10,448 nucleotides of DNA from Promethearchaeota archaeon (GCA_027031765.1 JALVPN010000172.1:1-10448), one strand, 5' to 3'; shown: positions 75-10,448, counted from the first letter of the stretch. Notes: generated from the sequence alone by a model not told the origin. Translations and numbers: made by a program.

Positions 75-959
75 TCATTGCCGCAGGCCGGTACCAGCCT
101 GGGCCTCGACCCCCAGTGGCGTGGTGAAGGTGAGCCTGCCCTCGTCAAGGCCCTGCTGGAAGCCCTGTGGCCCGTAGAGGACCTCAAAGGGTGGTTCGAT
201 GTCGAGGAACTCGTGGTACTCGTGGGCCCACATCTTGTAGCAGCCCGGACAGTTCGTCACGATCCGTTCAACACCGAGCTCAAGGTACTTCTGGATGTTG
301 TGCTCCGCGAAGACGCGGGCGGTCTCAAAGTCCCCGGTCATGATCATCGGTGCGCCACAGCACCACTCGTCCTCACCGAGGATGGTGAAGTCCTCACCGA
401 TCTTCTCCATGACGAGGGTTGTCGCAATTGTGGCCTGGACTGGCACTGCCTTGAAGGAAGAGGCGCAACCAAAGAAGAACGCAGTCTTGGCAGCGATGCC
501 TACGCGGTCGAGGAGAGCGTCCTCATCAGGGTGCCAGTATGACCAGCCCTCAACGCGGTCCATCTGTGCCTGACCAAGGATGTTCTTTGTCTTCAGGAGG
601 GTCTCGCGTGCGGTGACAAGTGCGTCTGGCCACATGCCCTTCTTGAGGAAGTCGCCACGCAGGGCCTGGTAGACCTTGACAAAGGGGATGTCCACCTGAC
701 AGACCTCCTCGCAACCACCGCAGAGAGTGCACCCGAACACGGCATCCCGGAGGCCCTCAAGGCCCTGTGACGCTTTCAGCCGGCCCTGCATCAGCGCACG
801 CGCCAACAGCATCTTGCCTTTCCCAGAGTAGCTGTCGCGTCGCTTCACCTTGAACGTGGGACACGCACCGTGGCCGACCTGACAGAAGCTACACTGTGCA
901 CAGGTGAAAGGGATTTCCCGGAGACCATACTGTTCAAGGACGGGGAACCTCATGTCCAT
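75..959 (-). CDS. HdrD/GlpC-like Fe-S oxidoreductase (2x[4Fe-4S] plus one CCG domain), apparently C-terminally truncated
   Basis: The translation from ATG 959 (or 953) contains CAQCSFC...CP and CTLCGGCEEVC ferredoxin-type motifs, then CCG-domain motifs FFGC, EWCCG and VTNCPGC. It ends at TGA 75-77 before the expected second CCG domain (YHDPC). The ORF-track extension 960-1271 does not look like this family. Confidence 0.85.
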   Translation of the reverse strand: MDMRFPVLEQYGLREIPFTCAQCSFCQVGHGACPTFKVKRRDSYSGKGKMLLARALMQGRLKASQGLEGLRDAVFGCTLCGGCEEVCQVDIPFVKVYQALRGDFLKKGMWPDALVTARETLLKTKNILGQAQMDRVEGWSYWHPDEDALLDRVGIAAKTAFFFGCASSFKAVPVQATIATTLVMEKIGEDFTILGEDEWCCGAPMIMTGDFETARVFAEHNIQKYLELGVERIVTNCPGCYKMWAHEYHEFLDIEPPFEVLYGPQGFQQGLDEGRLTFTTPLGVEAQAGTGLRQ

Positions 960-996
960 CAACGCCACAGACCAGTCATCACGGCGGTCAGCACAG

Positions 997-1068
997 CAGA
1001 CGGGCCGCCCTAGGGCGTCACGCAGAGAAATGCAGGTAAAATACGTTTCCTTCTTGCAGTACGCACCG
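997..1068. repeat. 72-bp direct repeat, copy 1 (copy 2 at 3128-3199)
   Basis: Manual ungapped alignment to 3128-3199 gives 64/72 identities. The copy is intergenic and lies 38 nt upstream of the HdrD-like start on the minus strand. Confidence 0.95.
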
Positions 1069-1303
1069 GTGCATTGAGGAGCAGAAAGACCGCCCCACCT
1101 AGTATACGAAACTCTGTACAAAGGCCAAGTCCTGTAGCCTTGGGCCAGAAGGGGGCCACCACGGCGAAGTCGTAGATACCGGGACACTCGAGGGTTTCTG
1201 TGATGTCGCAGCTCCGGACACGGGGGACTATTTGCAGGTCGCTCTCTACGCCACCAACGTGAAATATGCACGCACTACAATGGGTGCTGCGGAGTAGGTT
1301 TTG

Positions 1304-1322
1304 GAGCCCCGACAAGGGGCTC
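1304..1322. terminator. Perfect 7-bp stem-loop (GAGCCCC-GACAA-GGGGCTC) downstream of the 1350-2252 gene; possible 3' hairpin or terminator
   Basis: The inverted repeat is directly visible, about 28 nt past the minus-strand stop codon. No U-tract follows it on the coding strand, so its function is uncertain. Confidence 0.35.
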
Positions 1323-1349
1323 ATGCACCTTGTTGCCCATGCGAATCTC

Positions 1350-2252
1350 TCACTGTGACCGCGAGGGCGTTGACTCAAGGTCATCAGATTGGGGCGAATC
1401 ATCCACGTATCTCGACTCATGGAGCGGCCAGCGATCCAAGACCTCGTCAAGCACGTCGCGCTCCGTAGGATGGTCGTACTCAGTAATGTGCCCGGGTATT
1501 AGAAGGCTGGTCACAGCATGCAGTTGTTCTGGTGGGGGCATATCTCTCGGTTCGGCAGCAAGCTGTTTCTGAATCCTCGCCGTGATGTAGTCAAAGTACT
1601 TTGTCCGTTCTTGGACCTCCGGGTTCCTGAGTGCTCCTTCAGTCGGTTGGAATGAGTGCGCAACGCGGACGACCATGTAGTCAGGTTGCTCGTAGGGGAT
1701 GTCCGGGTGTTCGGGCACCTTTGGCACGTAGCCGACATACATGATTTTATACTCACCAGAATATGGCGCAGTAAGCACCTTTACATTGCTCTCTCCCTTG
1801 ATGAGTCCTGCCGCCATACAGATGAGTCCAGGAACAGCAAGTATGAGGGAAGAGAAGCCGCCGGGCGGGCCCAACCAACCCAAGAATGACAGCATGCCAA
1901 TCCCGCTAACAATCGCTCCCAAGACAACAAGGACTGACCCCAAGCCGATTTCCGATACGTTTTTCGCCATTGTTAGCTTGACGCTTGGGGAGCCTGACAT
2001 TGTTCCCGCATAGATGTCGCCGTGTTTCGTATGCCTGACCTCATGCCGTTCGTCACCGACTTCTACGCCTGCATCCTGCAATAGGAAGGCAAGTTCCCTG
2101 TGGAAGTGGTCAACCGGTCTGAACCTCGTCTTTATGTCTGTGAACTCGTAGAAGAACGGATGCCTCAACATCACCTGTCGTAGACTGAGCTCGTCTGAAA
2201 CATCCGCCCTCCATTTCATCTTTCGACTCGTCTTTTTCATGTCCTCTGTCAT
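1350..2252 (-). CDS. Hypothetical membrane protein (300 aa, central two-helix Gly-rich hydrophobic hairpin)
   Basis: Long ORF with AGGGGAGG SD-like sequence just upstream of the ATG. Two hydrophobic segments (IGLGSVLVVLGAIVSGIGMLSFLGWL and FSSLILAVPGLICMAAGLI) are flanked by soluble regions. No family recognised. Confidence 0.8.
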   Translation of the reverse strand: MTEDMKKTSRKMKWRADVSDELSLRQVMLRHPFFYEFTDIKTRFRPVDHFHRELAFLLQDAGVEVGDERHEVRHTKHGDIYAGTMSGSPSVKLTMAKNVSEIGLGSVLVVLGAIVSGIGMLSFLGWLGPPGGFSSLILAVPGLICMAAGLIKGESNVKVLTAPYSGEYKIMYVGYVPKVPEHPDIPYEQPDYMVVRVAHSFQPTEGALRNPEVQERTKYFDYITARIQKQLAAEPRDMPPPEQLHAVTSLLIPGHITEYDHPTERDVLDEVLDRWPLHESRYVDDSPQSDDLESTPSRSQ

Positions 2253-2311
2253 GAAACTGATTCCTCCCCTTCAACGGACAAAGGAATGCAGGCGCTGCCG
2301 TCGAATCGTCC

Positions 2312-2318
2312 TATATTA
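2312..2318 (-). promoter_or_regulatory. Putative TATA box (TAATATA) for the 1350-2252 gene
   Basis: AT-rich heptamer about 60 nt upstream of the ATG in a GC-rich background. Confidence 0.35.
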
Positions 2319-3127
2319 GTCTAACTCGGCTGGACATCGCTGAATGCTTCATTGAAGCCCAAATTGAGCTGGCGTAGCTTGCATCACATGGAGGGGCTGT
2401 GGGCCACGGCCCATTTACGTGGACTTCTGGATAGCCTTTCCGACTCAACAAGTGTATACCAGTCGAAGGGCAAGAAAGAAACAGTCCCCTACAGTGGAAA
2501 AGCGGAGTCCGCGCGTATGTGGGTCTCTTCGTGCCTTCGCACACGCGGGCCCGACAAGAAGACACCGAACTCCGATGCAACATGCAACCGACCTAGAAGC
2601 GATTCTCACCAGAACAGGGCGGAAAGCACTACTCTCAAGGCCACTCTGACAAAGCGTCAGGAAAAGTACAACATTGCCCTGAGGGATGACAGACAACACG
2701 CACGAGTCGGTGTTGACCTCCTTGCAAAGACCCCATTCTTTGTGAATACATGGGATGTCGCAAGAGATGCCGCTCGATATTTCGACCCGTATGGAGGCAC
2801 ACAGATGGTGGTAGGTCTCTTGATGCAGTGTGCTGGACTCTTCCCGTAGCCGGCTGCAAGGGTCCCCCTTCCATGAAGCATGCCTACCTTGACAGTCATG
2901 TGAGATGCTCCGCCGGGCTGGGCCGTCGGTCAGTCCCATTGACAGCTACAGGGCTCTGGCTGAGCAATATATGCGTGCCTCTTGACGGGCGGTCAGCAGG
3001 GTCTGTTGACATGCTGAGGGACACGATGGACGAGGCGTCCGTCGCACAGGAGCACGACCACGCAGGCGCACCTGAGGAGTCGCATCAACGACATCAATAT
3101 GGTATGCGGTGTCACGACACTAAGATA

Positions 3128-3199
3128 CAGACGGGCCGCCCAAGGCCGTCAGACAGAGAAATGCAGGCAAGATACGTTTCCTTCTTGCAGCACGTACCG
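3128..3199. repeat. 72-bp direct repeat, copy 2
   Basis: 64/72 identical to 997-1068, in the same orientation. Confidence 0.95.
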
Positions 3200-3270
3200 A
3201 CCGTGCCACACACCAGCAGTAGCCTCTGGGCCCGCCAGTTGCCCTGACAGACCCCCGTACACAGTAGACG

Positions 3271-3286
3271 CAAGGAAGTCTTATAC
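3271..3286 (+). promoter_or_regulatory. Putative BRE/TATA (CAAGGAAGT-CTTATAC) for the 3373 operon
   Basis: Purine-rich stretch followed by CTTATA, about 87 nt upstream of the ATG. The same CTTATA core occurs at 7908. Confidence 0.4.
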
Positions 3287-3359
3287 AGGCCCTCTGCGGA
3301 AGGTCGGGACAAGTGGCATAGCGTTCACGCTACCGGGGGCCATCTCAGGTCGAGTCCAG

Positions 3360-3367
3360 GGAGGTGA
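3360..3367 (+). promoter_or_regulatory. Shine-Dalgarno GGAGGTGA
   Basis: Perfect SD ending 5 nt before ATG 3373. It supports 3373 over the GTG at 3364, which lies inside the SD. Confidence 0.8.
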
Positions 3368-3372
3368 GGCCG

Positions 3373-4602
3373 ATGGCCAGCTCCGTGTTCGAGGACGAAA
3401 GGGTCAGGCTCTTTGACTGGAAAGTGATAGTGGCGGTAGCCATAATATACTCGATGAATGCGTTCCTACTCGAGGGTGCGAGCAGTCTGTTCCCCCACGA
3501 GGAGCGTGTGACGATTGTCGTGCCTGCATTTGCCTCCATCGTCTTTGGCCCAGTGATTGGAGGCCTGGGCACAGGGTTCGGGAACCTGCTCCTCGACATC
3601 ATCGACAAGTACGTCCTGTCAGACGAGGGGCTTGCTGCGCGCCACGTGCTGGGCTTCTTTGCCAACATGGTGGGTGCGATGGTTGTCGGCCTGTACTCCC
3701 GCAGGACCGTGATTGGTCCGGACGACCGGATATTCACGTGGGAGAGGATACTACAGGCCATAAGGAACACCCTGGCATCAGTCCTCGGCCTCGCTGTGGT
3801 CACGGGTGTGATGATAGGTTACGGGCGGTGGCTGTTGTCCTTTGCCGGGCTCGACACCTACACCTTCGAACAGGGCTCGACCCTTGCCGGGATCATAGTC
3901 ACGAGCAACGGCTTCGTCCTGCTGGTCGCAATGGTGCCACTCCAGCTGGCGTTCCTGTGGGTAGAGAGGCGGCGGGCACGGACATACAGGGACCAGCTCG
4001 AAGAGTCCAGGGCACTGTCAAAGGTGGGCGGCGTGCGTGGAGCACCAGTGCGTGTAGAGTCGTTCAAGGAGCAGGGCAAGGGCTTTGTCCTGCGGCGCTG
4101 GTCAACTGTGAGACTGAAAGTGCGCAACCTGCTCGACATCCCGATGCGTTACCGTGTGGAGGTGCTGGCACAGGACCACGTGGACCCGAACGTGTTCTAC
4201 ACCGAACTCATGACACCCAATGGTGTGGACGTCATAGACCTCCAGGTCTACCCATTCGACGATGCTGAGCGGGTCATCAGACTGGTGTTCCGGCCATGGG
4301 TCGAGAGCATGGACATGCTGCGCGACGTGTTCGAGGACGACCGGCACTTCGCCTACGAGTATACGTACAACGTCCTGTTGCCGGGGAACCGGCGTTTCAG
4401 GGTACTCGTATCAATCGTGGGCATCATGGCACTGATTGTGGCCGTTGCGCAGGCCGTCCGGAGCATGCAGGACGTTGCCACGGGCGTCGCAGCGTCCAGT
4501 GGTTCCCTAGCATTCATGGTGACCGTAGGGGTTGTGGTCGCTGAGTTGCTATTCGTGTTCCTGTGGTACCAGTACAGGAAGCGTCAAGAGGGGGTGGCGT
4601 GA
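3373..4602 (+). CDS. Membrane protein: ECF S-component-like ~6-TM N-terminal domain, soluble beta-rich (Ig-like) domain and C-terminal TM hairpin (409 aa)
   Basis: The motif PAFASIVFGPVIGGLGTGFGNLLLDII resembles the ECF S-component A..FGP..G...G..GNLL.D pattern. About 6 hydrophobic segments precede a polar region (~4000-4370) and two more TMs. Strong SD. Confidence 0.8.
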   Translation: MASSVFEDERVRLFDWKVIVAVAIIYSMNAFLLEGASSLFPHEERVTIVVPAFASIVFGPVIGGLGTGFGNLLLDIIDKYVLSDEGLAARHVLGFFANMVGAMVVGLYSRRTVIGPDDRIFTWERILQAIRNTLASVLGLAVVTGVMIGYGRWLLSFAGLDTYTFEQGSTLAGIIVTSNGFVLLVAMVPLQLAFLWVERRRARTYRDQLEESRALSKVGGVRGAPVRVESFKEQGKGFVLRRWSTVRLKVRNLLDIPMRYRVEVLAQDHVDPNVFYTELMTPNGVDVIDLQVYPFDDAERVIRLVFRPWVESMDMLRDVFEDDRHFAYEYTYNVLLPGNRRFRVLVSIVGIMALIVAVAQAVRSMQDVATGVAASSGSLAFMVTVGVVVAELLFVFLWYQYRKRQEGVA

Positions 4603-4603
4603 G

Positions 4604-5554
4604 GTGGACGACGAGAGACGAGACTGGGAGGAACAACTGACACAGCCAGAACAGCCCGCACCAAGGGGCACTGCACCTGATGACACTGGCAGAGAGAAGG
4701 GCGTGCTCGCTGCTGAACGCCCCGAGACCGCGAACGTCGTGCAAGACAGCAGCGCCATGCGGGTCTTCAGGTCCATACTGGACGTTTCCATGGTGGTAAT
4801 CGCCGGGGCGGTCGCCTACGTCTACTTCGTACAGGACGCGGCCCCTGAAGTAAGGGCCCAGTTCGCAGTCACCATGGGCGGGTTCTTCATCGTGCTAATC
4901 GTACTCGGTCTGCTCATCGTGTGCGAGGGGTGGCAGGGCCGGGACGTCATCAGAGACGTCACACATGAGCGCGGTGAGATTGCACACCTCGGCCCATACT
5001 CCGGCAAGCGCGGCATCCTTGACATAGGTGTCGACCAGCCGTTCGTGCAGTACCACGCGACACCACTGACACTCCGGATCCGCAACATCTCCGACAGCGA
5101 GGGGATTAGAGTGCGGTTCCACTCGATGGACCACATATCACCCAGCAGCATCGACCTGCCAATACCACCGGGCGCCGAGGAGACCATCCACGTCCACGTC
5201 GTGCCGATTGCCATTGGCGAGCGCGACATGTCAATCGAGCTGGCAGACCTGTTCGACGCGGAGGGGCGCCTGATCCCCAAGTACGAGGCGAACACACTCG
5301 CTGTCGAACGCTTCACATACTTCGCCCGTGAGCCGGCATTCGGTGGGATAACGGCAAGCCAGATGAGGCTGCTCAAGACGCTCGCCTCCGTTGCGACCGC
5401 CCTCGTGGTGGGCTCCGGCTTCATACTGGCGTTGTTCGGGGAGGCCCTCGGCGGGATGGAACAGGTGATAAAGACCTATGTCCCGATGCTCGTTATCCTC
5501 CAGGTGCCGGTGTTCTACGTCTACTTCACCCTGAGGAACAGGCTGCCGACCTAG
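4604..5554 (+). CDS. Membrane protein: 2 TM, beta-rich domain paralogous to that of the upstream gene, then 2 TM (316 aa)
   Basis: GTG 4604 lies 1 nt after the upstream TGA, with GAGGGGGTGG as SD. Hydrophobic hairpins flank a domain that aligns by eye with the upstream protein. Confidence 0.8.
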   Translation: MDDERRDWEEQLTQPEQPAPRGTAPDDTGREKGVLAAERPETANVVQDSSAMRVFRSILDVSMVVIAGAVAYVYFVQDAAPEVRAQFAVTMGGFFIVLIVLGLLIVCEGWQGRDVIRDVTHERGEIAHLGPYSGKRGILDIGVDQPFVQYHATPLTLRIRNISDSEGIRVRFHSMDHISPSSIDLPIPPGAEETIHVHVVPIAIGERDMSIELADLFDAEGRLIPKYEANTLAVERFTYFAREPAFGGITASQMRLLKTLASVATALVVGSGFILALFGEALGGMEQVIKTYVPMLVILQVPVFYVYFTLRNRLPT

Positions 5555-5660
5555 CGGTCATCACGTCGCCCCCCGCGGCCCCGGCCGGGCCCGGCACAGT
5601 GCTGGCTGTCACCTCACGGGAGGGCCGGGGGCACCTGACCCAGGGCCTTCCATCTCGCTA

Positions 5661-5669
5661 TGTTTTTAT
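5661..5669 (+). promoter_or_regulatory. Putative TATA-like element TGTTTTTAT upstream of the FAD-NuoB fusion
   Basis: AT-rich island about 64 nt before ATG 5733. An identical 9-mer occurs at 9160-9168. Confidence 0.45.
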
Positions 5670-5732
5670 GTCACGCACGGGGTCGTGGCAGACCGAGAGC
5701 ACTCTCGACCACAGAGATGGAGACGTTTGCTC

Positions 5733-7076
5733 ATGGGGCTTAACAGGCGCCAACTGGCACGGCTGGGCGAGATATTTGGTGACAGACTCATCACCGACAA
5801 GCACGAACTGGTCCTACATGGTGTCGATGTGGGCACGCTCCCGAAACAGGTCGGCTGGCTGATGAACACGAAGCCGGACGCAATCGTCCAGCCGGAGTCG
5901 CCAGAGGAGATAGCCGAGCTCTACAGGTTTGCAAATGAGGAGAGTGTGCCGGTCGTCCCACGCGGTGCAGGGACCTCCGGCTACGGGGGTGCAATCCCCA
6001 GGAAGGGCGGTATCGTTGTTGACATGAGATGGATGCGCCGCGTGCTCACCGTGGACAGAGAAGGGCTGACCATCACCGTCGAGCCGGGGATCTCGTGGGC
6101 AGACCTGCAGTTCGAACTGAACCAGCAGGGCCTCGACCTGCGCTGCTACCCGTCGTCGGGGCTCTCGGCCACCGTGGGTGGATGGGTCTCCCAGGGCGGT
6201 GACGGCATCGGCTCCCTCAAGTACGGCAACATCAACGAGAACGTCGTCGAGCTCGAAGTGGTGCTCCCGAACGGCAAGACGGTCCGGACACGGGACACTG
6301 ACCTGTTCTGCGACACCGAGGGGATACTGGGCATCATAACAAAGGTCACCCTCAAGGTCAAGCCACTCGTACCAATACGGTGCATAGTGGCGAGCTTTCC
6401 GGAGAACTACCTGATGGTCTTCGCCATGGAGAGGATCCTTGAGGAGGGGCCGCTGCCCTTCACAATCAAGTTCGAGGAGAGCAAGTACACAGACCTGAAG
6501 AAGAAGATGTGGGACAGGCCGGAACCGTTCCCGTTCCCTGTGCACCATGGTACGGTGCTCGTTGCCTACGAGGGTGACGACGAGGAGATTGAGGAAGGGT
6601 TTGAGACCGTCCGCCGTGTGGCCGCAGAGCTGAAGGGTACTGTGTATGACGAGCATGTGGCCGAACACGAGTGGGCCGACAGGTTCTATCCAATGCGTGT
6701 GAAGAAGATGGGGCCCACACTCGTCGTCGGGCAGGCCTTTGCACCACTGGAGGGGCTCGAAGGGGTACTCGATGACTTCCAGTTCGAACAGGCCTCTGCC
6801 CCCGCCGGCCTCGACGGGTACGTGACGTCGAGGACTGGCACGACCATCATGGGCTACTTCCTCGAGGACGAACGGCGCCACTTCTTCATGCTGTCGTGGT
6901 CGCAGAGCTTCATCATATTCAAGCTCGCCCAGAAGTACGGTGGCCATGTCCACAGTACCGGTATATGGTTCGCCAACTATGCAGAACAGTACTTCGGCAA
7001 GCGACGCCTGGCACGGATCCGGGCGGCAAAGCTGAAGTTCGACCCGAAGGAGATATCGAACCCAGGGAAGGTATTC
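5733..7076 (+). other. FAD-binding PCMH domain plus FAD-oxidase C-terminal domain of the fusion
   Basis: Family motifs from PDAIVQP to NPGKVF; about 448 aa, a typical size for GlcD-like proteins. Confidence 0.9.
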
Positions 7077-7673
7077 GCATACTGGCTGCCCCTGATACTC
7101 CGGGTCGGCAAGTACTTCATGTGGGTGGCCTACGACGCCTTCAGGAACGGCTTCGGACGGATTGCGCCGGCCCTCCTGCGCTGGCTCCAGAACGTGCCCC
7201 CACTCAAGTGGCTCCTGAGGTGGGGACGTGCGTACAGCCCGTGGCCCGTCCAGTACGGTCTCGGCTGCTGCATGGTGGACGGTGCTGCTGCGGTGGCCTC
7301 CCGGTGGGACCTTGAGAGGTTCGGCATGCTGCCACTGTTCGGGCCGCGACAGTGCGATGTCCTGTGGATATCGGGCTCCCTGACCAAGAAGATGGCCCCT
7401 CGTCCCCGCCGGATCTATGAACAGAGGCCAGAGCCCAAGTTCGTCATATCGTTCGGCCAGTGTGCCGCCAGCGGCGGGCTGTTCTGGGACGGGTACTCCC
7501 TGATGACCCCACCCGACAAGGTGGTACCTGTCGATGTCTACCTGCCGGGCTGCCCACCAAAGCCCTCCGACTTCATGAGGGCGCACCTGATACTACAGAA
7601 CAAGATCCGGGCAGGCACGACACACTGGCAGCGCAAGTACGAGGCCCAGGACGCTATGGGGGTCATACGGTAG
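5733..7673 (+). CDS. Fusion protein: GlcD/D-lactate-dehydrogenase-like FAD-linked oxidoreductase (VAO/PCMH family) plus NuoB/FpoB-like [4Fe-4S] subunit (646 aa)
   Basis: One uninterrupted ORF. N-terminal part: PDAIVQP..., PRGAGTSGYGGAIP, VEPG, SATVGG, EGILGII, FDPKEISNPGK. C-terminal part: WPVQYGLGCC, DLERFG, PRQCDVL, TKKMAP, GQCAASGG, VPVDVYLPGCPP. ATG 5733 has a GGAGA SD; the ORF-track GTG 5685 is less likely. Confidence 0.92.
   Translation: MGLNRRQLARLGEIFGDRLITDKHELVLHGVDVGTLPKQVGWLMNTKPDAIVQPESPEEIAELYRFANEESVPVVPRGAGTSGYGGAIPRKGGIVVDMRWMRRVLTVDREGLTITVEPGISWADLQFELNQQGLDLRCYPSSGLSATVGGWVSQGGDGIGSLKYGNINENVVELEVVLPNGKTVRTRDTDLFCDTEGILGIITKVTLKVKPLVPIRCIVASFPENYLMVFAMERILEEGPLPFTIKFEESKYTDLKKKMWDRPEPFPFPVHHGTVLVAYEGDDEEIEEGFETVRRVAAELKGTVYDEHVAEHEWADRFYPMRVKKMGPTLVVGQAFAPLEGLEGVLDDFQFEQASAPAGLDGYVTSRTGTTIMGYFLEDERRHFFMLSWSQSFIIFKLAQKYGGHVHSTGIWFANYAEQYFGKRRLARIRAAKLKFDPKEISNPGKVFAYWLPLILRVGKYFMWVAYDAFRNGFGRIAPALLRWLQNVPPLKWLLRWGRAYSPWPVQYGLGCCMVDGAAAVASRWDLERFGMLPLFGPRQCDVLWISGSLTKKMAPRPRRIYEQRPEPKFVISFGQCAASGGLFWDGYSLMTPPDKVVPVDVYLPGCPPKPSDFMRAHLILQNKIRAGTTHWQRKYEAQDAMGVIR
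7221..7673 (+). other. nuoB: NuoB/FpoB-like domain of the fusion with all four N2-cluster cysteines
   Basis: Cys codons at 7266 and 7269 (tandem CC), 7461 (GQC) and 7551 (PGCPP). Tandem CC is characteristic of NuoB, whereas group 4 hydrogenase small subunits have CxxC. Confidence 0.9.
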
Positions 7674-7901
7674 TGGCAGCAGGCCCACAGGCCGCGCTCA
7701 ACACGATGACGGATGCAAGACCATAGGCGAGGGACTACGCTACGTCCTAGGCGCTGCGGTGACCCCCACTGTGCACCTGCATGCCGGTGGTGCGCGGATG
7801 CGCGGGACGAGCACCCGGGCAGGGCACGTCCTGCGTCCTCTTGGTGCACCTGATGGGCACCGGCAGTGTCATGGCCACGGGGCAGGTCGTGGCCGATGGC
7901 G

Positions 7902-7914
7902 CAAATACTTATAG
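7902..7914 (+). promoter_or_regulatory. Putative BRE/TATA (CAAATA-CTTATAG) for the 7957 gene
   Basis: AT-rich element 43 nt upstream of ATG 7957. Confidence 0.5.
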
Positions 7915-7956
7915 TGGACTGGCACCGGGAATCCCGAAAGGGACGGAGCTAGGACA

Positions 7957-8427
7957 ATGAAGCTTCGCGAAGACAGTGACCCCTACTGCATGCTATGGGT
8001 CGGGGTACTCCTATTGGGTGCCTACTACTTCAATTTCCTCTACCGGTCGTATACACTGGCCGGCTACATCACCACGATGACCCCGTACCTCATGCCACTT
8101 ACTGTCATCCCACTGGTACTGGTGGTCACCCTCATCGGGTACCTGCGTCCGGCCAGGAGCAGGGTCAAGCCGACAATGCTCGCCCTCTCAGCCGTACTCG
8201 GGCTGTTCATCGTCGTCTTCTCGCTGCTCGTCCCACCGGACATGGGTGGGGGCGTGTTCCTTGCCAGCTGGGGGATTGGCGCTGCACTCCTCACGGCCGG
8301 CGGCTTCTCAATAATGCACCCCCTCGAAGACAGTGTGACACCCGGTATGATGGACGTGTCGGCGCTACACTATGGCCCACCAGCCGAGGAGGCCCCGTCA
8401 GGAGAGGCCCCCGAACAGACAGGCTGA
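7957..8427 (+). CDS. Small 4-TM hypothetical membrane protein with acidic/Pro-rich tail (156 aa)
   Basis: Four hydrophobic segments, a basic central loop (LRPARSRVKP), GGAG/AGGA SD-like sequence and a TATA-like element upstream. Confidence 0.8.
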   Translation: MKLREDSDPYCMLWVGVLLLGAYYFNFLYRSYTLAGYITTMTPYLMPLTVIPLVLVVTLIGYLRPARSRVKPTMLALSAVLGLFIVVFSLLVPPDMGGGVFLASWGIGAALLTAGGFSIMHPLEDSVTPGMMDVSALHYGPPAEEAPSGEAPEQTG

Positions 8428-8647
8428 CCGGTCTCACGGCACCCCGGTCTCAGCGGCAGCGCACAGTTGACCGTACGGGAGTGCGGCTGTGCCTGCCTGC
8501 AACTCCCGGAAGGAAGACGGGGGACAATCGGTATCGACGACAGACACTCAGCCGTGGGCCACATACATCGCTCAGGACCACTACACTAGCACGGCAGTCC
8601 GGCAGTAGTCCGGGCCTGCAGTCCCAGTCCCAGCCGTGCCGTGAGCC

Positions 8648-9007
8648 CTACTCTCTGAGCCAGCTGAGCGCTGCGAATGACAGGAGCAGGCCAAAGGCAA
8701 CCCATGCGAACATGACGATACCCATGAGGTCCGTGAAGAGGGCGAGGTCGAGGTAGCCGTGCACGCCACCAATGAGGCCTGACAGCACGGTGAGCATGAC
8801 CCTGCCCGGGCGCGAGGCTGCAAGGGCAAGCCCGTATGTAGAGGAGACCAGCAACAGGCCGGACACGAAGAGGATGTAGTTGAAGACAGCGCCGGGCGTG
8901 ATCGACATGAGCACGACCCAGAAGTACGCGCCGAGAAGGCCCGCACCTATGAGGAGCACCAGATAGTAGAAGAAAGCACCTTCCTCAGAGACCGTCAGTT
9001 GAACCAC
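8648..9007 (-). CDS. Small 4-TM hypothetical membrane protein (~119 aa), probable paralog of 7957-8427
   Basis: Four hydrophobic segments and a basic central loop (SRPGR). Start taken at GTG 9007 (uncertain by a few codons). The upstream ORF-track extension overlaps its own promoter. Confidence 0.8.
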   Translation of the reverse strand: MVQLTVSEEGAFFYYLVLLIGAGLLGAYFWVVLMSITPGAVFNYILFVSGLLLVSSTYGLALAASRPGRVMLTVLSGLIGGVHGYLDLALFTDLMGIVMFAWVAFGLLLSFAALSWLRE

Positions 9008-9051
9008 CCGATTCTCTCTTGACTCGGTGCGACAGGTCTGACTACGACCGG

Positions 9052-9066
9052 TATTTAACTCCTTTG
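9052..9066 (-). promoter_or_regulatory. BRE/TATA (CAAAGGAG-TTAAATA) for the 8648-9007 gene
   Basis: Canonical archaeal-type TATA 45 nt upstream of the start, preceded by a purine-rich BRE-like stretch. Confidence 0.6.
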
Positions 9067-9159
9067 AGAGGAGCTGCATGCCCTCTGTCGGCCCGGTCGT
9101 CACGTGGGGGCCTGCGGTGCTCCGGAGACCGACCACAGGAGCACCTCACGGGGTCGAAG

Positions 9160-9172
9160 TGTTTTTATTATG
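9160..9172 (+). promoter_or_regulatory. Putative TATA (TGTTTTTATTATG) for the nuoA-nuoJ operon
   Basis: Strongest AT-rich island upstream of nuoA, about 185 nt before the start. It shares TGTTTTTAT with 5661-5669. Confidence 0.5.
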
Positions 9173-9353
9173 CAAGTCAGTACGCGCGAGTCCAACCACA
9201 GGACTGCAGGGCCTGACCCAAGCGGTGAGGACTGCAACCCAAGGACAAAACATGGCCCGTGGTATGACGCCGGACGGAAGGCACTGGTCGCACACAGGGG
9301 TTGCCGGGCCTGACACCATGGCGTGGTGCTGGCGGGCAGGGTGGTCTTCGAAT

Positions 9354-9794
9354 ATGAGGCTGTTCATGGACTTCGTTCCCGTCCTGGTCTGGGCCCTCCT
9401 GGCGGCGGCGCTTGTGATCGTCATGCTCCTGGCCTCCTGGGTGCTGCGGCCGCATGTGCTCCAGAACTCGGAGAAGACCGCCACCTATGAGTGCGGCGAG
9501 GAGCCCATTGGGCCTGCAAGGATTGCATACCCGTACAACTACATTGTCTATACGGTCCTGTTCGTAGTTGTCGATGTGCTGACTGCGTTCCTGTGGCTGC
9601 TCTCAGCGACACCCCTGAGGACATCTCAGGCCGTTGTCTGGCAGGTGTTGCTGTTCATCCTTGTCATCATGTTCGGCATCGGGTATGCCGTGCGCCGCGT
9701 ACCGGAGACCATCCTCTCAGGAGAAGAGACGCTGCGCCTATACCGCCAAGCAAAGGCCGCAGTGGCCGACAGTGAGGCAGGAGGCACCGAGTGA
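9354..9794 (+). CDS. nuoA: Complex I-like subunit A (NuoA/FpoA/ND3)
   Basis: Three TMs and the loop motif EKTATYECGEEPIGPAR, followed by YNYIVYTVLFVVVDV. Start at ATG 9354 or 9366. Confidence 0.9.
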   Translation: MRLFMDFVPVLVWALLAAALVIVMLLASWVLRPHVLQNSEKTATYECGEEPIGPARIAYPYNYIVYTVLFVVVDVLTAFLWLLSATPLRTSQAVVWQVLLFILVIMFGIGYAVRRVPETILSGEETLRLYRQAKAAVADSEAGGTE

Positions 9795-10448
9795 TGCAAG
9801 GGGTCGAAGCACTGTTCGAACAGGTAGAGTTCATAGCAATCACCGTGGTGGTGCTTGTCCTGGCATACCTTGCCCTGGAACACAGGGAGATTGTATACGC
9901 TGCGTTCTTCTTCGGCATGATGGCGGCCACCGTTGCGGGGTACTACCTGCTGCTTGAGGCCCCGTTCGTTGCAGGGATGCAGATTGCAGTGTACACTGGC
10001 GGCATAAGCGCCCTCATAGTGTTCGGTGTGCTGCTCCTACCACGTGCCCAGGACTCCACGCTCGAGAGGTTCAGCCCCCCCATGAAACGGCGCCTCGGCC
10101 TGCTGATATCAGTGGTCGTGACATTCTTCGCTGCAGTCCTCGGCCTCACCTTCCAGTGGTACCAGTCCTTCCCGGCAGGCAGGCCCGAGGCCTCACAGGA
10201 CCTCCAGGGACTGGCGGAGTGGCTCTGGGGCAGCCATGGTATCTACGTACAGATTGTTGCCCTCATCATACTGACTGCTCTGGTCGGCTCGATTGCCATC
10301 ATGCGGATGGAGAAGGCCGAACGGCTGCGGCCCATTGTGGCCGAGTTCGGCACCGAGACAGGGGTGGTCGGTGGACAGGACGGTGATGGCCCAGACAGTG
10401 GAGGGAATGGGGGGTCAGACAACGGTGACGGGGAAGGAGGGAGAGGCG
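9794..10448 (+). CDS. nuoJ: Complex I-like subunit J (NuoJ/FpoJ/ND6), open at the window end
   Basis: My translation from ATG 9794 (TGATG overlap with the nuoA stop) reads MQGVEALFEQVEFIAITVVVLVLAYLALEHREIVYAAFFFGMMAATVAGYYLLLEAPFVAGMQIAVYTGGISALIVFGVLLLP..., including the NuoJ A.FVA..QI.VY.GGI motif. It has 5 TMs and no stop before 10448. It is absent from the supplied ORF track. Confidence 0.9.
   Translation, partial: MQGVEALFEQVEFIAITVVVLVLAYLALEHREIVYAAFFFGMMAATVAGYYLLLEAPFVAGMQIAVYTGGISALIVFGVLLLPRAQDSTLERFSPPMKRRLGLLISVVVTFFAAVLGLTFQWYQSFPAGRPEASQDLQGLAEWLWGSHGIYVQIVALIILTALVGSIAIMRMEKAERLRPIVAEFGTETGVVGGQDGDGPDSGGNGGSDNGDGEGGRG

Follow-up and report, generated by a model that had tools for sequence, protein, structure and literature searches.

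Contig C172 of a Promethearchaeota archaeon (GCA_027031765.1 JALVPN010000172.1:1-10448) carries a gene in which a flavin adenine dinucleotide (FAD) domain is fused to NuoB of complex I, near a gene for an HdrD-like iron-sulfur (Fe-S) protein and the genes nuoA and nuoJ. The window analysed here is the entire contig of 10,448 bases, from a metagenome-assembled genome (MAG) of 2.95 Mb that is 95% complete. The sole public run with its sequence is a hydrothermal-vent metagenome, no RNA data set containing it was listed, and the near homologues of its proteins all carry the name Candidatus Thorarchaeota (Thorarchaeia, Asgard archaea). The account that we favour, with a confidence slightly above even, is that Thorarchaeia possess an 11-subunit ion pump without NuoEFG whose NuoB-fused FAD domain binds HdrD; ferredoxin would bring electrons in and FAD and HdrD would lead them out. 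The fusion and its HdrD neighbour point to an undescribed entry or exit module for electrons in the complex-I-like family. No description of a FAD-NuoB fusion was found in the full-text literature on Asgard and complex I diversity (subscription journals were outside the search).

Domain calls were made with Pfam and further family checks with NCBIfam. Two relatives that hold the whole operon on single contigs, L015 (a closed genome of 3.16 Mb) and L016, were used as references. Pfam recovers the HdrD/GlcF-like gene, the fusion, nuoA and nuoJ, confirming the sequence-only reading that these lie within 10 kb. The parts that belong to the system are as follows.

108 to 953, minus strand: HdrD/GlcF-like Fe-S protein, N-terminal 283 of about 408 residues (Pfam, orthologue alignment)
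5656 to 5670, plus strand: BRE/TATA-like promoter motif CGCTAKGTTTTTATG, 5' of the fusion gene (kept in L015 and L016)
5733 to 7673, plus strand: FAD-domain::NuoB fusion, 646 amino acids (Pfam; orthologue lengths)
9366 to 9794, plus strand: nuoA (Pfam Oxidored_q4, 4e-18; start from the L015 orthologue)
9791 to 10447, plus strand: nuoJ, which reaches the contig end (Pfam Oxidored_q3, 9e-24)

Before the starts were corrected, the open reading frames (ORFs) ran from 75 to 1271 (minus strand) for the HdrD-like gene, from 5685 to 7673 (plus strand) for the fusion and from 9078 to 9794 (plus strand) for nuoA.

The link between the HdrD-like gene and the fusion was surveyed in all 87 species genomes of the class Thorarchaeia. 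An orthologue of the FAD(-NuoB) protein is present in 61 of them and an HdrD orthologue (64-80% identical) in 63, with both in 59. At the genus level, the HdrD and FAD orthologues coincide, no genus having one without the other. The two genes share a contig in 52 of the 59 genomes (in the remaining seven they lie on separate short contigs) and hdrD is 5' of the FAD gene in all 52. The genes are divergent in 50 of these cases and less than 400 bp apart in 38; the other 14, the window included, have 1.4-9.6 kb of variable DNA between them. Gene-neighbourhood conservation and profiling had been named as a check on the sequence-only reading, and the pair came through it, with co-occurrence near-universal in the class. 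The full-length fusion is kept in about 50 of the 87 genomes, and the FAD-NuoB orthologue, whole or in fragments, is found in 12 genera. Nowhere in these 12 does the orthologous NuoB domain (84-92% identical) stand alone, the operon holds no second nuoB, and the orthologous NuoD (76-87% identical) is found in the same 12 genera. The FAD-NuoB architecture forms a single 50%-identity cluster among 1.84 billion representatives.

One clue to the origin of this arrangement comes from genus g14, where the FAD protein is unfused (about 499 residues, 56-59% identical). It ends precisely at the fusion joint (…PPLKW/LRWGR…), at the point where NuoB homology starts in the fusion. Its gene lies about 120 bp downstream of hdrD on the same strand, and orthologous Nuo genes were not found in the g14 genomes searched. 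Because g14 carries the pair unfused and without these genes, FAD/HdrD is taken to be a self-standing unit of two genes, which became attached to NuoB in the other genera. The g14 pair also has a trio of genes for geranylgeranyl reductase, polyprenyl synthase and UbiA prenyltransferase beside it (L017 3445-9941). The reductase and the synthase recur near hdrD-FAD in L016 (6150-9831), and the trio stands beside the closest unfused nuoA-nuoB (L044 11257-14481). The recurrence may reflect a neighbourhood shared since early times, or else a connection with prenylated lipids or carriers. Further pairs of paralogous FAD_binding_4 (about 573 and 487 residues) and CCG proteins are found close to the locus in L015 (1-5334), and such paralogous pairs, which amount to a family expansion in Thorarchaeia, have neighbours of their own.

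The fusion is encoded by one ORF with matches to FAD_binding_4 (1.5e-42), FAD-oxidase_C (2.9e-12) and Oxidored_q6/NuoB (8.1e-23). A FAD domain of the VAO/GlcD family (about residues 1-450) is followed by a two-helix linker (about 451-486), highly conserved among orthologues, and then by the NuoB domain; public records label the protein NuoB or hypothetical. The orthologues are 73-82% identical and every one has 646 residues. Together with the promoter-like motif at 5656-5670, this length is the reason for placing the start at 5733. The motif is kept in the intergenic regions of both reference relatives, resembles a BRE/TATA promoter and has one match of its type in the window versus none in 200 shuffles. 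The NuoB domain retains all four cysteines that bind cluster N2 (GLGCC, GQCAASGG and PGCPP), including the tandem CC of complex I, and passes the cut-off of the NCBIfam NuoB subfamily (171 bits versus 116). Matches of the fusion in the Protein Data Bank (PDB) include NdhK/PSST/Nqo6 at about 1e-40 and LctD at 6e-30, and those of the NuoB part rank above MbhJ.

What kind of enzyme is the FAD domain? Its model has a predicted local distance difference test (pLDDT) score above 90, and the closest structures are LDHD, D-lactate dehydrogenase, LctD and AGPS. A Foldseek search with the full model recovers the FAD fold only; the best matches are mLDHD, with target-normalised template modelling (TM) scores of 0.82-0.85, and LDHD is not separated from AGPS. 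In mouse LDHD the ligands of metal and substrate are H398, H405 and E442, a numbering that was checked against the titles of the H405A entries. This His/His/Glu triad was not found in the FAD domain, where the aligned residues are Tyr, Thr and Val. The triad is missing across the whole subfamily, CCG-fused relatives too, which reads G(Y/W/F)VTS and GG(H/K/R)x(H/Y)(S/G)(T/I)G at these places. The domain scores 141 bits against the GlcD equivalog of NCBIfam, the cut-off of which is 568, and lies likewise far under the cut-off of the YdiJ equivalog.

The partner was modelled with the FAD domain of L015 (residues 1-480, an alignment of 38 rows) and its cognate full-length HdrD-like protein (26 rows). 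The complex reaches an interaction prediction score from aligned errors (ipSAE) of 0.86 versus 0.00 for the best of three controls. Of 80 solved complexes, 58 reach this ipSAE mark, as do 2 of 110 mismatched pairs, although these counts apply only roughly because self-made unpaired alignments were used. At least 96% of contacts recur between runs, and pLDDT is 90 for the partner. The predicted contacts join HdrD residues 13-88, a ferredoxin domain with all eight cysteines of the two 4Fe-4S clusters, to FAD loops 79-81, 97-100, 121-127, 142-145 and 318-330. A sequence search of the PDB found no similar complex, which makes recall of a solved structure unlikely. Structure prediction with full-length HdrD had been the other suggested check, and this outcome supports the view that the FAD domain binds the ferredoxin domain of the HdrD-like protein. 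The run covered the FAD domain and HdrD only; the predicted docking is on the domain that is fused to NuoB.

The relatives of both proteins tell a similar story. The nearest non-orthologous FAD proteins (36-41% identical, 860-1040 residues) often have Fer4 and CCG domains in the same polypeptide, which agrees with the earlier statement that GlcD-like FAD proteins usually partner CCG-domain Fe-S proteins. One of the closest clusters (P0123, 42% identical) has its FAD domain fused to an NrfD-type membrane subunit in an archaeal MAG (L042 3758-10657). Two multihaem cytochromes c are encoded in that operon together with an Fe-S protein of the NrfC type; 0.5 kb further downstream, the opposite strand carries an HdrD-like gene. 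In light of the NrfD fusion, it seems that the FAD/HdrD cassette has been joined at least twice to different membrane redox modules, NuoB and NrfD. Among 23 full-length HdrD orthologues, the cysteines of two 4Fe-4S motifs (CX2CX2CX..C) and two CCG motifs are invariant or nearly so. CCG motifs are of the kind that binds noncubane clusters in HdrB. The HdrD-like protein matches TmcB, HmcF and DsrK under their cut-offs, and its scores for the HdrB equivalog are far under the cut-offs.

The remainder of the pump is encoded on C12 of the same genome, which begins inside nuoK and continues with nuoC, nuoD, nuoH, nuoI and four antiporter-like (Proton_antipo_M) genes. The order in the operon is fused B, two small genes, A-J-K-C-D-H-I and the four antiporter-like genes. 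L015 and L016 show the same order on single contigs, and its reproduction by C172 and C12 is why the observation is considered real. The genes A, B, C, D, H, I, J, K and L/M/N are encoded together, as expected of an 11-subunit Nuo/Fpo/NDH-1 complex. The operon is without NuoEFG; a NuoF-like gene lies elsewhere, on C47. There are four antiporter-like subunits (L020, C12 3569-10359; 507, 733, 514 and 500 residues) versus the usual three, and the fourth is possibly an extra pumping module. The same genome also has, at C217:92-415, C127:688-1773 and C105:9378-13807, a second, distant NuoB/NuoD-like set (about 33-42% identical) and a second cluster with three antiporter-like genes, probably another membrane complex of the group 4 type.

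NuoD is informative about the acceptor. In the PDB it is most like MbsL of the sulfane reductase MBS (4e-60). The four cysteine ligands of a nickel-iron (NiFe) site are not found in NuoD, the motifs at these places being GPQHVSAHG near the N terminus and LDPYPGWWDR near the C terminus, and one remnant cysteine aligns with MbsL C85. Two residues of Nqo4, His38 and Tyr87, have roles in quinone binding (PMC7684303). The position of Tyr87 is occupied by Met in the MAG itself and in L015, and by Leu in L016. As for quinone synthesis, MqnA/D and MenD were not found in the 95%-complete MAG, and no MenB or MenA scored over its cut-off. McrA was not found in the genome either, nor was a gene for an HdrE-type cytochrome b in the hdrD neighbourhoods.

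How might these parts work together? On the favoured account, the FAD/HdrD pair is the older part, a redox enzyme of two genes that worked by itself until gene fusion tied it to the pump. Reduced ferredoxin would feed NuoI and the electrons would reach N2. From there they would bypass quinone and exit via FAD and then the Fe-S chain of HdrD. The CCG site would reduce a soluble acceptor, for instance a disulfide or persulfide; alternatively, the flavin might reduce an organic acid. Ion translocation by the four antiporter-like subunits would be powered by the drop in redox potential. The outlet role is favoured because NuoD has lost the quinone Tyr, no pathway for a quinone is apparent, the FAD domain is without dehydrogenase residues and the CCG sites are intact. 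The sequence-only reading had proposed one energy-conserving chain with the FAD domain as the adaptor for HdrD. Synteny, the predicted interface and the Fe-S/CCG fusions back the adaptor. Gene content, the fusion, synteny, co-occurrence, kept cofactor ligands and a predicted interface stand as observed; electron transfer between FAD and N2, its direction, the substrate and pumping are inferred. More tentatively, and at odds clearly below even, this would be a further catalytic type beside proton-reducing membrane-bound hydrogenase (MBH), polysulfide-reducing MBS and quinone-reducing complex I: a ferredoxin-driven, quinone-independent pump in which N2 passes electrons to a fused flavin, the flavin to an HdrD-type CCG reductase and the reductase to a soluble cytoplasmic acceptor. 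If true, Thorarchaeia would gain a respiratory-like coupling site without a membrane electron carrier.

Several points do not fit this outlet mechanism so well. The NuoB part of the AlphaFold2 (AF2) model is weak, with pLDDT below 50 for residues 474-539, and the closeness of FAD or any HdrD cluster to N2 that electron transfer requires is a presumption. Solved complex I has the NuoB N terminus close to the membrane, so the path between FAD and N2 could be indirect. His38 of Nqo4 is kept in NuoD. A MenA-like gene scores only slightly under its cut-off (92 versus 102 bits), so the genome may yet provide an unusual membrane carrier. The interface prediction relies on self-made unpaired alignments and its pass is short of proof, and the HdrD copy of this genome is truncated in the assembly.

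What if electrons flow in the opposite direction? The FAD domain and an HdrD wire would then oxidise an organic substrate and feed N2, and a membrane carrier or polysulfide would be reduced at the NuoD/NuoH pocket, making the complex a dehydrogenase pump with its own specific substrate. The FAD domain's closest relatives of solved structure (LctD, LDHD, glycolate oxidase and AGPS) do oxidise substrates, and enzymes of the GlcDEF and YdiJ types send electrons from FAD through Fe-S/CCG to the membrane. The retained His38, the near-threshold MenA-like gene and the resemblance of NuoD to a subunit of the polysulfide-reducing MBS are also what such an input module would lead one to expect. However, the triad of 2-hydroxyacid dehydrogenases is missing in the whole FAD subfamily, Tyr87 is lost, and the menaquinone pathway was not found in the MAG. 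Moreover, a couple of the 2-hydroxyacid type would presumably give little drive for four antiporter-like subunits, and NuoI is kept as an entry route for ferredoxin. Input through the flavin is therefore judged unlikely, though it is the main rival.

It could also be that the fusion does nothing electronic and only localises or co-regulates a soluble dehydrogenase or reductase at the membrane, with no exchange with N2. The FAD/HdrD module does stand alone in g14, the linker is built of amphipathic helices with which the unfused protein closes as well, and the geometry from FAD to N2 is presumed. Nevertheless, the orthologous NuoB is never unfused in the 12 genera. In addition, the linker is highly conserved, and the parallel case of NrfD, fused independently within a cytochrome/Fe-S membrane module, argues for electronic coupling as what was selected. 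A mere tether is judged improbable. A different objection concerns HdrD. Thorarchaeia have several paralogous FAD+CCG pairs, and inserts of 1.4-9.6 kb part hdrD from the fusion in 14 genomes, so perhaps the adjacency is only historical and the HdrD-like protein serves other FAD paralogues. This is very hard to reconcile with an orthologue that is 5' of the fusion in every same-contig case, that is restricted to genera with the FAD orthologue and that is predicted to form an interface which the controls do not, while the paralogues have neighbours of their own; we give it almost no weight.

The copy of the HdrD-like gene in the window deserves comment. The sequence-only reading was right that the gene is present (Pfam CCG, 6.8e-14; Fer4_8, 5.3e-10; start at 953 on the minus strand), but this copy breaks off at residue 283. 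Identity to the full-length fusion neighbours (407-408 residues) is 75% for L015 and 67% for L016, and what is left of the protein contains both ferredoxin-type 4Fe-4S motifs together with the first of the CCG motifs. Homology to HdrD orthologues ends at about base 108, equivalent to residue 283 of about 408, and therefore the second CCG domain is missing. Could the other 125 residues be on another contig? This was rejected, as they are absent from the entire assembly. Bases 1-107 have no homology to HdrD orthologues. In Logan contigs of the run that holds the stretch (one DNA run, perhaps the source sample), they belong to a separate unitig at 5x versus 10-13x, with the break between 135 and 211. 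An unrelated contig end on a separate unitig of lower depth indicates a likely assembly or strain junction. The cut is thus most likely such a junction, and the contig end is probably chimeric. The in-frame TAG of HdrD paralogues was considered as pyrrolysine and rejected; it is a natural stop read through by the search, and PylS was not found.

The window has five more features, most of them membrane proteins.

1 to 107, strand not assigned: unrelated contig end, outside the system (no homology to HdrD orthologues; Logan depth)
997 to 3199, plus strand: segment flanked by 72-nt direct copies, holding an ORF at 1350-2252 on the minus strand (repeat search)
3364 to 5554, plus strand: two inserted membrane-protein ORFs, 3364-4602 and 4532-5554 (no family; homologue search of 3364-4602)
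7957 to 8427, plus strand: small membrane protein with an acidic tail, 156 amino acids, candidate accessory subunit (conserved at this position in L015 and L016)
8648 to 8992, minus strand: membrane protein of 114 amino acids with a GVHGYLD motif, candidate accessory or assembly factor (conserved with the complex)

The intervening genes had been described as uncharacterised membrane proteins, and they are indeed hydrophobic, with no Pfam or NCBIfam family. As a set they fall apart: those in 1350-5554 resemble an insertion, specific to the lineage, in the divergent promoter region (linkage was checked for 3364-4602 only), whereas the two small ones 3' of the fusion are conserved. The ORFs 1350-2252, 3364-4602 and 4532-5554 have no match to any Pfam or NCBIfam family, and in relatives only 170-370 bp separate hdrD from the fusion. 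The product of 3364-4602 (412 residues) has homologues in 6 of the 86 other genomes of the class and, in all three of these that have the fusion, on a different contig from it. This gene was therefore rejected as part of the chain, being unlinked to the locus in relatives. Both 3364-4602 and 4532-5554 are probably outside the system. Direct repeats of 72 nt at 997-1068 and 3128-3199 (89% identical) frame a 2.1-kb part of the insertion, and the 2.95-Mb assembly has no further copies of the element. The idea that it duplicates the promoter of the fusion was rejected, since it and the conserved promoter motif do not align and both copies sit at this one locus. In another genome (G017, L019 4952-8944) the site between hdrD and the fusion holds one ORF of 1330 residues. 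This different insert, and the presence of inserts in 14 of the 52 genomes, suggest that the site is an insertion hot spot.

The two conserved proteins are candidate accessory subunits. For that of 7957-8427, the counterparts found at this place in L015 and L016 show 40-48% identity, and no Pfam or NCBIfam family matches it. The protein of 8648-8992, for which no Pfam or NCBIfam family was found either, is single copy in 62 of the 87 genomes, which belong to precisely the 12 genera with the complex. Its homologue stays beside nuoA where the operon is split (G007 and G026).

What does this mean for Asgard archaea? Their headless complex I homologues are usually drawn as passing electrons from ferredoxin to an unknown acceptor (PMC9723677; bioRxiv 10.1101/2024.07.04.601786), and Asgard energy conservation bears on models of eukaryogenesis. 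The fusion names a concrete partner module for the Thorarchaeia enzyme, a link backed by the fusion itself, by kept synteny, by an operon of ancestral-like, unfused form and by the predicted interface. It also suggests that one FAD/HdrD cassette was recruited independently to two membrane modules, and lends indirect support to the long-standing, unproven idea that HdrD plugs into Fpo-like complexes.

Compared with the headless complex I/NDH-1 of cyanobacteria and the 11-subunit version of anaerobes, the proposed pump shares 11 core subunits, the absence of NuoEFG, the N2 ligands and NuoI as the probable entry for ferredoxin. It differs in its gene order, in the extra antiporter-like subunit, in the loss of Tyr87 from NuoD and in the attached flavin/HdrD module. 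MBS of Pyrococcus furiosus (PDB 6U8Y; PMC7684303) is likewise ferredoxin-driven with a non-quinone acceptor, has no NiFe site, has lost the quinone Tyr and carries the remnant cysteine, MbsL C85, that is also present in Thorarchaeia NuoD. However, its membrane arm is Mrp-like and there is no flavin/HdrD module, whereas the Thorarchaeia arm is Nuo-like (A, J, K, H and L/M/N-type) and the NuoB has the tandem CC and four cysteine ligands of complex I. The group 4 [NiFe] hydrogenases (Mbh/Ech) differ in that the four NiFe ligands are missing from the Thorarchaeia NuoD.

On the soluble side, GlcDEF, Dld-II/LdhAB and YdiJ-type enzymes also have a VAO-fold FAD subunit paired or fused with a protein of two [4Fe-4S] clusters and two CCG domains, but here the His/His/Glu triad is missing and the FAD domain is fused to NuoB. 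Hmc, Tmc and DsrMKJOP resemble the proposal in that a CCG protein (HmcF, TmcB or DsrK) forms the catalytic end, on the cytoplasmic side, of a redox complex in the membrane, and the sister FAD protein fused to NrfD beside multihaem cytochromes adds to the likeness. Their membrane partner is NrfD/cytochrome, whereas here it is a pump of the complex I type with a FAD domain interposed. HdrDE differs as well, since no HdrE-type gene was found in the neighbourhoods and no McrA in the genome; for the latter reason CoM-S-S-CoB from methanogenesis is not expected as the substrate. In Methanomassiliicoccales, HdrD without HdrE has been proposed to dock on the Fpo-like complex (Lang et al., 2015, as presented in PMC6147122). 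As presented there, the likeness extends to a headless 11-subunit complex I homologue, ferredoxin as the supposed donor, HdrD as the outlet and no quinone. What sets the Thorarchaeia system apart from that proposal is that a FAD domain, covalently fused to NuoB, is the predicted docking site for HdrD, and that hdrD is syntenic with the complex.

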